64,000 nt of DNA from assembly GCF_044647545.1 (NCBI RefSeq), contig NZ_CP172818.1; one strand, given 5' to 3'. The notes beneath the pieces are model-generated. The model searched no databases, had not been told where the DNA came from, and saw only the letters and a program-made list of their open reading frames with translations. Positions 1,428 through 48,914 of this stretch are shown one piece after another (within the stretch, counting starts at the first letter, position 1; each line of letters begins with the position of its first letter). Source of the stretch: Escherichia coli (lineage in GTDB: Bacteria > Pseudomonadota > Gammaproteobacteria > Enterobacterales > Enterobacteriaceae). The translations under genes and the position numbers were made by a program.

Positions 1428-4400
1428 CTGTTGAAATTCAGAATTTAGGTTTTGCTTTTGTTACTGGTGAAAATACAACAGGTATAAATAGTGGCACGAT
1501 CTCGTTATTACAAAATGGTAAAGATCCGGCACCGTCTCCCATTGTTTTACTGGCTACTAACGGAGGGAGCGCCACTAATGCAGGTACGATCACAGGTAAA
1601 GTGACGGAACAACATAGCGTATTTAACAAGTATTCAACGGGCACATCGAATTCATTTATTTTTAATAACGATGTCAGTAGCATAACAGGGTTAGTCGCTC
1701 AATCGAATAGCACAATTATCAATACTGACAGCGGCATCATTGATTTGTATGGTCGTGGTAGTGTCGGCATGCTTGCTATAGCAGATTCAACAGCAGAAAA
1801 TCAGGGTAAAATTACACTGGATTCTATGTGGGTAGATGCAAATGACACTACCGCAATGCGAGATATAGCTAGCAACAGCGCCATTGACTTCGGTACAGGT
1901 GTGGGAGTTGGTACTGATAGTTATAGTGGTGCAGGGAAAAATGCAACAGCAATTAACCAATTGGGCGGTGTTATAACTATTTATAACGCCGGCGCAGGTA
2001 TGGCGGCCTATGGCGCCAGCAATACAGTTATTAACCAGGGGACGATTAACCTCGAAAAAAATGGTAATTATGACGATAGTCTGGCAGCAAATACTCTGGT
2101 AGGGATGGCTGTTTATGAGCATGGTACTGCTATCAACGACCAGACGGGTGTTATCAATATCAATGTTGGTACTGGTCAGGCGTTTTATAACGATGGCACA
2201 GGAACAATTGTTAACTATGGTACAATCTGCACTTTCGGCGTGTGCCAATCGGGGAATGAGTACAATAATACAGATGATTTCACCTCACTGATCTATACCG
2301 GTGGCGATACGATTACACGAAGCGGAGAAACTGTAACGCTAAATAAATCTGCTGCTGTGACTGATAAGCTGGCTGGGAATGTTGTTAATAGCGGAACGCT
2401 TTCCGGTGATCAAATTACGGTATCAAGCGGTCTTCTGGAAAATACCAGCGGTGGCATCATCAATAACTTAGTAAAACTTGACAAGGGTGCCGTCATTAAA
2501 AATGCCGGGGTGATGACGAATAACGTCGATGTTAGCGGTGGAATCCTCAATAATGCCGGAGAAATGACTGCGCAAATTACCATGAATGCTGGTGCTGATA
2601 GTTCGTTAGTGAACAACACCGGAACCATCAATAAAATCGTGCAGAACGCGGGGGTATTCAATAATAGTGGCAGTGTAACAGGGCGGATGATGTCGGCTGG
2701 CGGGGTCTTTAATAATCAAACTGACGGGGCGATTATGAGAGGTGCTGCGCTGACAGGTACTGCAGTGGCAAATAACGAAGGAACCTGGAACCTCGGAAGT
2801 AGTAGTGAGGGTAACAACACCGGGATGCTGGAAGTTAATAATAATTCAGCTTTCAATAACCGCGGCGAGTTTATTCTTGATAACGACAAGAATGCTGTGC
2901 ACATCAACCAGTCCGGTACGCTTTATAATACCGGTCACATGAACATCAGTAATTCTTCCCACAACGGAGCCGTTAATATGTGGGGCGGAAATGGTCGTTT
3001 TATCAATGACGGAACGATTGATGTTTCTGCGAAGTCACTGGTAGTCAGCGCTAATAATGCCGGCGATCAGAATGCCTTCTTCTGGAACCAGGATAACGGG
3101 GTCATCAACTTCGATCACGACAGCGCCAGTGCCGTGAAAGTCACCCACAGCAACTTTATTGCCCAGAATGACGGCATCATGAACATCAGCGGCACCGGTG
3201 CTGTGGCTATGGAAGGTGATAAGAACGCGCAGCTGGTTAACAATGGCACCATCAACCTCGGTACCGCAGGCACTACTGACACGGGTATGATCGGTATGCA
3301 ACTCGATGCCAACGCCACGGCGGATGCGGTAATCGAAAACAACGGCACCATCAATATCTTCGCCAATGACTCGTTTGCATTTAGCGTACTGGGTACAGTA
3401 GGTCATGTGGTTAACAACGGCACGGTGGTGATTGCCGATGGGGTTACGGGTTCTGGACTGATCAAGCAGGGCGACAGCATCAATGTTGAAGGTATGAACG
3501 GTAACAACGGTAATAGCAGCGAAGTGCATTATGGCGACTATACGTTGCCGGATGTGCCGAAGCCCAATACGGTTAGTGTAACGTCGGGAAGTGATGAGGC
3601 TGGTGGCAGCATGAACAACCTCAACGGCTATGTCGTCGGTACCAACGTTAACGGCAGCGCCGGGAAGCTGAAGGTTAACAATGCCAGCATGAACGGCGTG
3701 GAGATTAACACGGGCTTTACCGCTGGTACGGCAGACACCACTGTGAGTTTTGATAACGTAGTGGAAGGTAGCAACCTGACCGACGCTGACGCCATCACCT
3801 CAACGTCCGTGGTATGGACTGCCAAAGGCAGCACCGATGCCAGCGGTAACGTTGACGTCACCATGAGCAAAAATGCCTACACCGATGTGGCAACAGATGC
3901 CTCGGTGAATGACATCGCGAAAGCACTGGATGCGGGTTACACCAACAACGAACTGTTTACCAGCCTGAACGTCGGCACGACTGCTGAACTGAACAGTGCT
4001 CTGAAACAGGTCAGCGGTAGCCAGGCGACCACGGTATTCCGCGAAGCGCGCGTGTTAAGCAACCGCTTTAGTATGCTGGCAGATGCCGCGCCGAAAGTGG
4101 GTAACGGTCTGGCGTTCAACGTTGTCGCGAAAGGCGATCCGCGTGCCGAGTTAGGTAATAATACCGAATACGACATGCTGGCATTGCGTAAAACTATCGA
4201 CCTGAGCGAAAGCCAGACGATGAGTCTGGAGTACGGTATCGCTCGTCTCGATGGTGATGGTGCGCAGAAAGCGGGTGATAATGGCGTTACAGGCGGTTAT
4301 AGCCAGTTTTTTGGCCTGAAACATCAGATGTCGTTCGATAACGGCATGAACTGGAATAACGCCTTGCGTTACGACGTTCACAACCTTGACAGCAGCCGCT

Positions 4401-5992: not shown

Positions 5993-6055
5993 CGAATATA
6001 CAAAAGGGAAAGATGCATTTCCCTTTTGTTTCTTTTTTAATGGCATGGAGTGCAT

Positions 6056-13122: not shown

Positions 13123-13152
13123 GATGTGGACTGAATATCTACAGTCCACATC
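13123..13152. terminator. Bidirectional hairpin between convergent ynbD and azoR
   Basis: 11-bp inverted repeat GATGTGGACTG / CAGTCCACATC in the 53-bp convergent gap. Confidence 0.5.
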
Positions 13153-46160: not shown

Positions 46161-47585
46161 ATGCAACATAAGTTACTGATTAACGGAGAACTGGTTAGCG
46201 GCGAAGGGGAAAAACAGCCTGTCTATAATCCGGCAACGGGGGACGTTTTACTAGAGATTGCCGAGGCATCCGCAGAGCAGGTGGATGCTGCTGTTCGCGC
46301 GGCAGATGCAGCATTTGCCGAATGGGGGCAAACCACGCCGAAAGCGCGTGCGGAATGCCTGCTGAAACTGGCTGATGTTATCGAAGAAAATGGTCAGGTT
46401 TTTGCCGAACTGGAGTCCCGTAACTGTGGCAAACCGCTGCATAGTGCGTTCAATGATGAAATTCCGGCGATTGTCGATGTCTTTCGCTTTTTCGCCGGAG
46501 CAGCTCGCTGCCTGAATGGTCTGGCGGCAGGTGAATATCTTGAAGGTCATACTTCGATGATCCGTCGCGATCCGTTGGGAGTCGTGGCTTCTATCGCACC
46601 GTGGAATTATCCGCTGATGATGGCAGCGTGGAAACTGGCTCCGGCGCTGGCGGCAGGGAACTGCGTAGTGCTCAAACCATCAGAAATTACCCCGCTGACC
46701 GCGTTGAAGTTGGCAGAGCTGGCGAAAGATATCTTCCCGGCAGGCGTGATTAACGTACTGTTTGGCAGAGGCAAAACGGTGGGCGATCCGCTGACCGGAC
46801 ATCCCAAAGTGCGGATGGTGTCGCTGACGGGCTCTATCGCCACTGGGGAACACATCATCAGCCATACCGCGCCGTCCATTAAGCGTACTCATATGGAACT
46901 TGGTGGCAAAGCGCCAGTGATTGTTTTTGATGATGCGGATATTGAAGCTGTGGTCGAAGGTGTACGTACTTTTGGCTATTACAATGCCGGACAGGATTGT
47001 ACTGCGGCTTGTCGGCTCTACGCGCAAAAAGGCATTTACGATACGCTGGTGGAAAAACTCGGTGCTGCGGTGGCAACGTTAAAATCGGGTTCGCCGGATG
47101 ACGAGTCTACGGAGCTTGGACCTTTAAGCTCGCTGGCGCATCTCGAACGCGTCAGCAAGGCGGTAGAAGAGGCGAAAGCGACAGGGCACATCAAAGTGAT
47201 CACTGGCGGTGAAAAGCGCAAGGGTAATGGCTATTACTATGCGCCGACGCTGCTGGCTGGCGCATTACAGGACGATGCCATCGTGCAAAAAGAGGTATTT
47301 GGTCCGGTAGTGAGTGTTACGCTCTTCGACAACGAAGAACAGGTGGTGAATTGGGCAAATGACAGCCAGTACGGACTTGCATCCTCGGTATGGACGAAAG
47401 ATGTGGGCAGGGCGCATCGCGTCAGCGCGCGGCTGCAATATGGTTGTACCTGGGTCAATACCCATTTCATGCTGGTAAGTGAAATGCCGCACGGTGGGCA
47501 GAAACTTTCTGGTTACGGCAAGGATATGTCACTTTATGGGCTGGAGGATTACACCGTCGTCCGCCACGTCATGGTTAAACATTAA
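46161..47585 (+). CDS. patD: Gamma-aminobutyraldehyde dehydrogenase
   Basis: 474-aa aldehyde dehydrogenase ORF, last gene of the ydcSTUV cluster. Confidence 0.9.
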
Positions 47586-47681
47586 GGGTAATATTGCAGA
47601 TCGTAAGAGTATGAGATGATCTTGCGTACTGTCAGAGCACTGATTTCTCTGACAGTACGTGCTGCGTGCAAAATCACTACA

Positions 47682-47777
47682 TCAAATAAACCAGCCAAAT
47701 CTCATAGAGATAAGAGTAAACAAACCAACAGCAGCAAAGACATTTATCAGTACTACAGTTCTACTGGAAACATTCAT
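47682..47777 (-). CDS. yncL: Small membrane protein YncL (31 aa)
   Basis: Minus-strand reading MNVSSRTVVLINVFAAVGLFTLISMRFGWFI behind a GGTGG site; below the ORF-track length cutoff. Confidence 0.7.
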   Translation of the reverse strand: MNVSSRTVVLINVFAAVGLFTLISMRFGWFI

Positions 47778-47971
47778 TTTTGCCACCTTTTATCATTGCC
47801 CCTATGTGTATAGTACGGGTTAAGAAAATCCGCAATAATACTCATTCTGAAGATGGATAAGGACAAGTTGCTGTTTGATGATTTTTTCTCAAACTGGTGA
47901 AAAAATTTGATGCACGTCAAAAAATGACGCATATTTGCGCGCGTTTTATTCATCTGGCTGGACGCCCGTAC

Positions 47972-48145
47972 ATGTCTCTCTATCAACACATGCTTGTTTT
48001 TTATGCGGTTATGGCAGCAATCGCATTTCTTATCACCTGGTTTCTTTCTCACGATAAGAAACGCATCCGTTTCTTAAGCGCCTTTCTGGTGGGGGCAACA
48101 TGGCCGATGAGTTTCCCGGTGGCGCTGTTGTTTTCACTGTTTTAA
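47972..48145 (+). CDS. ortT: Orphan membrane toxin OrtT (YdcX), 57 aa
   Basis: Internal ATG of track ORF 47897..48145 gives MSLYQHMLVFYAVMAAIAFLITWFLSHDKKRIRF…; in-frame ATG at 47924 is an alternative start. Confidence 0.7.
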   Translation: MSLYQHMLVFYAVMAAIAFLITWFLSHDKKRIRFLSAFLVGATWPMSFPVALLFSLF

Positions 48146-48230
48146 ATCTTACTCACTGGCTTGACGGCACCACGCAGACTTATATCATTTGGATGAATCG
48201 ATAAATTTCACAAGTGGCTAAGGAGAAAGT

Positions 48231-48464
48231 ATGTCGCATCTGGATGAAGTCATCGCGCGCGTGGATGCCGCGATTGAAGAGAGCGTCATTGCCCATATGA
48301 ACGAATTATTAATCGCCCTGAGCGATGACGCGGAGTTAAGTCGGGAAGATCGCTACACCCAGCAGCAGCGTTTGCGCACAGCGATCGCCCATCACGGTCG
48401 CAAGCATAAAGAAGATATGGAAGCGCGCCATGAACAGTTAACCAAAGGCGGCACCATCCTGTGA
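48231..48464 (+). CDS. ydcY: DUF2526 family small protein
   Basis: 77-aa ORF (MSHLDEVIARVDAAIEESV…). Confidence 0.7.
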   Translation: MSHLDEVIARVDAAIEESVIAHMNELLIALSDDAELSREDRYTQQQRLRTAIAHHGRKHKEDMEARHEQLTKGGTIL

Positions 48465-48914
48465 TTAAAATGAGCGTCTGGCTACCAACCAGGCGCCAAC
48501 CACAAGTAAAATTGCGCCACAAATTGGGCCGAACAACGCCCGTAGTGGTACGCCATGACTGCGAAAGATATCCAGCACCAGACCGCCAATCAGCTGGCTG
48601 GCGACCAGTACTGCAATAGTTGTCGCCGCTCCCACATTCTGATATCCGCTGATACTGGCGAAGACAAAAAACGATCCCAGCAAGCCAGGTATAAGTGTCC
48701 ACCAGCGCACGCTGGACACCAGTTCGCCAAACCCCGCCATACCTTGTTTAAACCATAAAATAGAAACAAAGAGCACAATCCCCACCAGTGAGTTCAGCAA
48801 CATGGCGATGAGAATGGTAGAGGAGGTCTGGGTGATGCGCACCATCAGCGTGTTCTGGACTACCAGACCAATTCCGGCGGCAATCAAAAAAGCAAGGGTG
48901 AGCGACTGATTCAT
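48465..48914 (-). CDS. ydcZ: DMT-superfamily inner-membrane protein
   Basis: 149-aa hydrophobic ORF; 4-bp overlap with mnaT. Confidence 0.75.
   Translation of the reverse strand: MNQSLTLAFLIAAGIGLVVQNTLMVRITQTSSTILIAMLLNSLVGIVLFVSILWFKQGMAGFGELVSSVRWWTLIPGLLGSFFVFASISGYQNVGAATTIAVLVASQLIGGLVLDIFRSHGVPLRALFGPICGAILLVVGAWLVARRSF

Follow-up and report, generated by a model that had tools for sequence, protein, structure and literature searches.

What is the role of a perfect 13-bp palindrome that lies between the ends of two convergent genes but has no U-tract to make it an intrinsic terminator? The question is raised by the patD / yncL / ortT region of Escherichia coli, found within the 64-kb stretch of DNA that was analysed here (henceforth, the window). 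A first-pass annotation made from the sequence had placed the palindrome between patD and the 3' end of yncL, had judged that it was not a standard intrinsic terminator, and had proposed that it was either a processing or stability element or a palindrome bound by a protein, without assigning it to yncL over patD. It had also set down beforehand that the lack of a transcript end at the palindrome and of conservation beyond this strain would speak against these proposals. We consider below the genes at the locus, the RNA that ends there, and the fate of the palindrome in related bacteria.

The genes around the palindrome

RefSeq names patD, yncL, ortT, and ydcY on DNA identical to that of the window, and the 681 bases surrounding the palindrome find matches of 97-100% identity in 5415 of 5426 complete E. 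coli genomes. A re-check of the sequence gave the same 386-bp gap between patD and ortT and the same coordinates throughout as had been given before, and both the sequence and the RefSeq annotation agree with the earlier description of a minus-strand yncL encoding 31 amino acids and a plus-strand ortT encoding 57 (Table 1). YncL scores 72.5 bits against NCBIfam NF000537 (cut-off 35; E = 1.8e-20), and OrtT matches Pfam PF10753 with E = 9e-28, above the curated cut-off. The description of OrtT as a single-helix peptide, however, was wrong, as two transmembrane segments are predicted for the protein, at residues 6-26 and 34-54 (PMC4344625). The list of open reading frames offers a GTG-started ortT of 82 amino acids. 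All 81 of 81 loci, however, have the ATG at 47972, and an in-frame stop is found immediately upstream of that ATG in eight species. In several others, such a stop comes within 3-8 codons of it. These comparisons of sequence support the form of 57 amino acids over the longer one. In the search of E. coli genomes, plasmid-classed records accounted for six copies of the yncL-ortT segment, and a few genomes had two.

Table 1. Positions of genes and other features at the patD-ortT junction, in coordinates of the window
Feature	Position	Strand	Basis or remark
patD coding sequence	46161..47585	+	Convergent with yncL; stop codon 39 nt before the hairpin
Antisense-patD stretch with bicyclomycin-sensitive read-through	47300..47621	-	Peak Rho score at 47336; C/G 1.2-2.2
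C-rich, G-poor 40-nt tail directly past the hairpin, candidate rut sequence	47585..47624	-	C 12, G 3
yncL 3' UTR	47622..47681	-	Starts one base past the stop codon and extends as far as the mapped steady-state 3' end (Adams et al. 2021)
3'-terminal stem-loop of the yncL transcript (13-bp stem, 9-nt loop)	47625..47659	-	Folding, covariation, mapped RNA 3' end
yncL coding sequence (31 amino acids; stress-response small membrane protein)	47682..47777	-	RefSeq and NCBIfam NF000537
yncL Shine-Dalgarno sequence, AAGGTGG	47789-47783	-	Reading of the sequence
Promoter-like block of yncL (TTGCGG, 17 nt, (C)TATACA)	47807..47835	-	Conserved in an 18-locus alignment; hexamers assigned by reading
ortT coding sequence (57 amino acids; GhoT/OrtT toxin family)	47972..48145	+	Divergent from yncL; RefSeq and Pfam PF10753

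The promoter-like block and the Shine-Dalgarno sequence of yncL are almost invariant in Escherichia, Citrobacter, and Salmonella. With its upstream C, the -10 element looks sigma-S-like, in agreement with the sigma-S dependence of the Salmonella orthologue, which was first catalogued as the sRNA STnc1110 (PMC5437024). On the other side of the intergenic region, a second conserved promoter-like block precedes ortT (TTGATG-17-CATATT, window 47907-47950), and the sigma-32-like CTTGAT...CGCATAT can be read there as well. A scan for terminators gives two matches, one on the minus strand within this block (47927-47944) and one inside the ortT coding sequence (48003-48026). Adams et al. (PMC7815308) also report a Term-seq 3' end on the plus strand at 47940, weak in signal (848 reads, Rho score 0.5) and essentially at the predicted start site, and this may come from read-through from patD, antisense to yncL.

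The palindrome and the 3' end of yncL RNA

The two arms of the inverted repeat, CGTACTGTCAGAG (47625-47637) and CTCTGACAGTACG (47647-47659), are each 13 nt long, 100% complementary, and separated by 9 nt, just as the first pass had them. No other perfect hairpin in the window is as long, and resampling with a first-order Markov model leads one to expect only 0.03 such hairpins per 64 kb. Folded as RNA, either strand attains an energy of about -21 to -22 kcal/mol, with z = -4.2 to -4.7 relative to shuffled sequences. No T-run follows the stem on either strand (the tails read CAAGATCATCTC on the minus strand and TGCTGCGTGCAA on the plus strand), the tail CAAGAUCAUCUC contains no uridine-rich tract, and a scan for terminators and sigma-70 promoters reported nothing at the hairpin, so that the claim of no U-tract on either strand is confirmed. 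A scan of 47000-48800 against Rfam, with a cut-off of E <= 10, turned up just two matches, both below threshold and ascribed to chance, and neither of them at the hairpin.

Two further long perfect hairpins occur in the window, at 13123-13152 and 6000-6029. An 11-bp hairpin, GATGTGGACTG...CAGTCCACATC, is flanked by no T-run and possibly represents a further U-less 3' stem-loop, while one of 12 bp, ACAAAAGGGAAA...TTTCCCTTTTGT, followed by TTCTTTTTT, is a typical intrinsic terminator.

That the hairpin marks the end of an RNA can be seen in published Term-seq results. Adams et al. 2021 (eLife, PMC7815308) give, in supplementary file 1, a minus-strand 3' end at position 1517039 of MG1655, with 75,265 reads in LB at OD 0.4 and 536,300 at OD 2.0, a sevenfold higher signal. 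Few counts in the examined parts of the table are as high, and the same end occurs three times in the three-condition file. The position is equivalent to 47622 in the window, 3 nt past the last pair of the stem and 60 nt after the yncL stop codon. The offset on which this equivalence depends (1469417) is fixed independently by the 3' end upstream of ortT (1517357, or window 47940), the hairpin and its flanks are identical in K-12 and the window, and the 61-nt context printed for 1517039 is exactly this hairpin, on the strand of yncL, and then CAA. (The strings in the table consist of 50 + 1 + 10 nt, though the caption gives 40 nt upstream.) A transcript thus does end at the palindrome, on the minus strand. 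In the published table, the end is labelled 'antisense, patD', because 60 nt exceeds the 50 nt permitted by the rule for a 'primary' end of yncL, while patD lies within 50 nt. The same resource leaves yncL with no assigned 3' end. If the start of the RNA is read from the promoter-like block, then the yncL transcript would run on the minus strand from about 47800 to 47622, a length of about 180 nt, which fits both the cataloguing of STnc1110 as an sRNA (PMC5437024) and the sevenfold rise in Term-seq signal at OD 2.0.

The end is not of the sort made by an intrinsic terminator. Classical terminators in the Adams table, SgrS among them, end within U-runs at position 51 (SgrS after eight U's), unlike the yncL end, whose 8-nt tail, CAAGAUCA, has a single U. 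The canonical arrangement, a U-rich tract of 7-8 nt with the 3' end inside it, was accordingly rejected for this hairpin. With no U-tract, and with an RNA end 3 nt past the stem and outside any U-run, the earlier judgement that this is not a standard intrinsic terminator is borne out.

Might the end be the product of an endonuclease, with the hairpin as a processing signal? RNase III could act on the stem or on a duplex of patD and yncL RNA, or RNase E could cut beside the stem, but we consider this very unlikely. RNase III usually needs roughly two helical turns, more than a 13-bp stem provides, and the mapped end falls outside the stem rather than within it. Two points lean the other way: overlapping convergent transcripts have been proposed as substrates of RNase III (PMC12288877), and tiling arrays and a northern blot found the abundance of yncL mRNA altered in mutants of RNase E and/or RNase III (Stead et al. 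2011).

What happens to transcription beyond the hairpin is indicated by supplementary file 2 of Adams et al. 2021 (PMC7815308), where a minus-strand region of Rho termination has its peak at 1516753, equivalent to window 47336 and 286 nt downstream of the hairpin. Reads upstream and downstream number 220 and 9 without bicyclomycin and 106 and 72 with it, for a Rho score of 16.6 (the criterion in that study being > 2) and p = 5e-21 (PMC7815308). The values come from DirectRNA-seq in windows of 800 nt, and part of the induced antisense-patD signal could be from other promoters. The change from 9/220 to 72/106 means that when Rho is inhibited, most transcription passes the hairpin. The RNA just past the stem is C-rich and G-poor, and on the minus strand the ratio of C to G remains 1.2-2.2 over 400 nt. 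The literature searched contained no paper linking ydcW with bicyclomycin.

Such read-through, amounting to 68% of upstream coverage with bicyclomycin, bears on a different view of the hairpin, that it is a noncanonical, U-less terminator common to the convergent genes patD and yncL, which stops polymerase directly, perhaps by way of head-on collisions, with Rho acting as a backstop. The position of the hairpin between convergent genes invites this view, a stem-loop has been reported to be required for positioning collisions at convergent gene boundaries, the two strands fold equally well, C exceeds G in both downstream directions, and patD-yncL is among the convergent pairs listed as having transcript ends that overlap in 50% or more of 58 MG1655 RNA-seq samples (PMC12288877). 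We nonetheless regard it as rather improbable, since besides the extent of read-through, A- and U-tracts are absent on both sides, the mapped 3' end falls 3 nt beyond the stem instead of in a U-run, and loci in which some other gene is the convergent neighbor still have the hairpin. Across the three conditions sampled, the Adams table also has no plus-strand 3' end in the several hundred bases around the hairpin, though patD appears to be weakly expressed there and the absence is to that extent uninformative.

The explanation we favor, with a probability of about three in four, is that the palindrome forms an exonuclease-blocking stem-loop with which mature yncL mRNA ends, once Rho has terminated transcription within antisense patD. 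It builds on features with direct support: the hairpin, its covariation (see below), its linkage to yncL, the 3' end found in vivo at its base, and the bicyclomycin-sensitive read-through downstream. According to the model, RNA polymerase would read through the hairpin, because there is no U-tract to bring about release. Rho would then load on the C-rich, G-poor RNA just past the hairpin and terminate transcription diffusely over the next few hundred nucleotides, antisense to patD, at sites whose exact positions we infer. PNPase and RNase II, acting 3' to 5', would trim the resulting tail as far as the stable stem, as the class of transcripts discussed in the last section suggests, and what would remain is a protected 3' end 3 nt past the stem. 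The same palindrome is able to fold in RNA reading through from patD on the plus strand, and since it sits between convergent genes, it probably caps that RNA also.

A more elaborate possibility is that yncL RNA serves two functions. The RNA pairs with RprA according to both RIL-seq and TRIC-seq, and one can imagine that the U-less hairpin and the conserved tail GATCTTCCCAC constitute a specific recognition module, with ProQ or some other 3'-end-binding protein as its partner, or else a switch that links the expression of yncL and patD by way of their shared palindrome, in place of a generic block to exonucleases. We think this quite unlikely.

Conservation and covariation of the hairpin

If the hairpin belongs to yncL, then one might expect the two to travel together. 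A search for OrtT in contigs representing one genome per species found 80 ortT loci, and yncL lies divergently upstream of ortT in 27 of them, from Escherichia, Citrobacter, Salmonella enterica subsp. arizonae and diarizonae, Intestinirhabdus, and a Pluralibacter MAG. In the loci from Enterobacter, Kosakonia, Lelliottia, Leclercia, Phytobacter, Pantoea, and others, a search reaching 3 kb from ortT detected no yncL. Of the 27 loci with yncL, 26 have a hairpin after its stop codon, and in 25 a stable hairpin begins 13-34 nt past the stop. Only in Intestinirhabdus alba does the sequence after yncL give a weak fold and no convincing hairpin. The hairpin keeps its place beside yncL however far off patD lies (about 100 nt, 370-700 nt, about 2.3 kb, or more than 2.7 kb), and it is retained in E. 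coli C7, where an insert of 1.3 kb parts it from patD. Among the 5426 complete E. coli genomes, the 61-nt segment containing the hairpin is present in 5411, in a median of one place each, with variation mainly in the loop.

The stem is maintained by paired changes. RNAalifold, given an unguided MAFFT alignment of 24 distinct sequences, finds a core of 9 pairs, and in the same alignment 7 of the 13 pairs of the window stem show changes on both sides. Over those 13 pairs, 83% of cells are paired, as opposed to 34-51% in controls where the partners were slid by 1-3 columns, and in none of 500 shuffles was the observed covariation score reached. Within Escherichia alone, the outer stem occurs as CGTAC/GTACG, CGCAC/GTGCG, CATAC/GTATG, and CACAC/GTGTG, while the Salmonella arm is different and rich in GC (TTGGCGGGGAGG). 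The loop ranges from 3 to 9 nt among the loci. Which strand the pairing serves was addressed through G-U as against A-C pairs, and here one variant, E29, favors the sense of yncL and another, Escherichia sp. E1V33, the sense of patD. Conservation therefore extends across genera, with compensatory changes, well beyond this strain.

The pattern of change also weighs against the second function proposed in the first pass, that the palindrome is bound by a protein, for example as the operator of a dimeric regulator resembling LexA, with half-sites TACTGT and ACAGTA. The dyad is perfect, its outer bases do by eye resemble the half-sites of LexA, and Escherichia and Citrobacter have much the same inner core, CTG(T/G)CAGAG. 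But the arms drift by paired substitutions that keep the pairing rather than a recognition sequence, a loop varying between 3 and 9 nt would shift the half-sites apart, and the site lies in the 3' region of convergent genes instead of at a promoter. A LexA (SOS) box, moreover, is a dyad of the form CTGT-N8-ACAG, and was rejected, as the spacing here is 19 nt rather than 8 and the halves vary by compensatory changes. Binding by such a regulator therefore seems extremely unlikely. The first of the two proposed functions, a processing or stability element, is supported both by the RNA end 3 nt past the stem and by the compensatory changes across genera, and to it can now be added the assignment to yncL.

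Past the stem, the 40-nt tail contains a block, GATC(T/A)TC(T/C)CA(C/T), that is conserved in Escherichia and Citrobacter, and the 40-nt tails in the loci of these two genera have 10-16 C's and 2-7 G's. In other genera, the end of yncL looks different. In Salmonella arizonae and diarizonae, the stem is GC-rich and a U-rich run lies 9-10 nt past its core, and the Pluralibacter MAG has, starting directly after the yncL stop codon, a canonical terminator, AAAAAAGCAGCC...GGCTGCTTTTTT, with A-tract, hairpin, and T-tract. There is thus an apparent switching of terminator type at the same position, from U-less in Escherichia and Citrobacter to a distal U-rich run in Salmonella to canonical in Pluralibacter, and to judge from these sequences, the mechanism may differ from genus to genus.

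The insert in E. coli C7 deserves some description. It is an AT-rich segment of 1.33 kb (positions 2687-4010 of the C7 locus), inserted at a point equivalent to window 47576-47590 and encoding, between patD and the yncL hairpin, a CatB-related O-acetyltransferase. Near-identical direct repeats, TAAACATTAAG and TAAATATTAAG, lie at its edges, with the region of the patD stop duplicated, and in strains bearing the insert, patD is followed by a small hairpin of its own plus a T-run. An integron attC site was considered for the CatB-like insert, but no resemblance to its core site was evident by eye. The flank in Escherichia sp. MOD1-EC7003 is similar to that in C7. In 6 of 30 evenly spread rows from the matches to E. 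coli genomes, the matched stretch lacks patD, and of 5412 matching records, 879 are in the band of 90-95% identity where the C7-type allele lies. E. coli genomes of these two kinds appear to carry the C7-type segment of 1.33 kb.

Relation to known kinds of 3' ends

The model of a protective stem-loop was reportedly first proposed by Peters et al. 2012. Both the class to which we assign the hairpin and the 3' end itself, as an entry in a published table, were already known. What is added here is the assignment of that end to yncL, the support from covariation, and the picture across genera. A strong Term-seq end mislabelled as antisense to patD can now be given to a yncL mRNA of about 180 nt, and the gene, encoding a small, stress-induced membrane protein, provides a clear case, backed by covariation, of a protective stem-loop that has no U-tract and sits at a Rho-dependent 3' end. 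Beyond annotation, the significance is slight.

The hairpin resembles that of a canonical intrinsic terminator in the size and energy of its stem-loop and in its position at the end of a gene. It differs in having no U-tract, in an RNA that stops 3 nt past the stem, where an intrinsic terminator would put the end 7-9 nt into a U-run, and in read-through that depends on Rho. Bidirectional terminators, said to have been treated by Ju et al. 2019, also come to mind, but bidirectional intrinsic terminators are typically flanked by A- and U-tracts. The yncL hairpin has no such flanks, and only a minus-strand 3' end has so far been observed. It is nevertheless similar to those terminators, and to 'excludon' overlaps, in that one hairpin lies between convergent genes, and patD-yncL is listed as an overlapping pair (ExcludonFinder, PMC12288877).

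A third comparison is with the REP elements in 3' UTRs that act as terminators and stabilizers, such as REP325. These are likewise extragenic palindromes, REP being often found between convergent genes, and they stabilize upstream mRNA and have been linked to termination that is partly Rho-dependent (bioRxiv 10.64898/2026.03.23.713779). REP elements, however, form a dispersed family of repeats, while the yncL hairpin is single-copy. No further exact copy of its arms occurs in the window, only partial matches at the level of chance, and a REP element was rejected for the palindrome on the grounds of a median of one place per genome in 5411 E. coli genomes and no match in Rfam.

The closest parallel is with the transcripts described by Dar & Sorek 2018 (NAR, PMC6061677), whose termination is Rho-dependent but which end precisely after stable stem-loops that lack U-tracts. 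In that class, the stem-loops protect the RNA from PNPase and RNase II, and rut sites are found just downstream (PMC6061677). The yncL hairpin is alike in the following respects: a stable stem-loop (about -21 kcal/mol, z = -4.2) directly upstream of a dominant 3' end, no U-tract, an excess of C over G just downstream, and read-through that is bicyclomycin-sensitive (as measured in 800-nt windows). It is because the features match point for point that we read the hairpin as a protective 3' stem-loop of yncL. There is no essential difference between the two, the particulars of the present case being that the end lies 60 nt after an open reading frame of 31 codons and that the palindrome is perfect and shared with a convergent gene. 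The several types of 3' end found after yncL in different genera also illustrate the switching of terminator type that Dar & Sorek predicted (PMC6061677).
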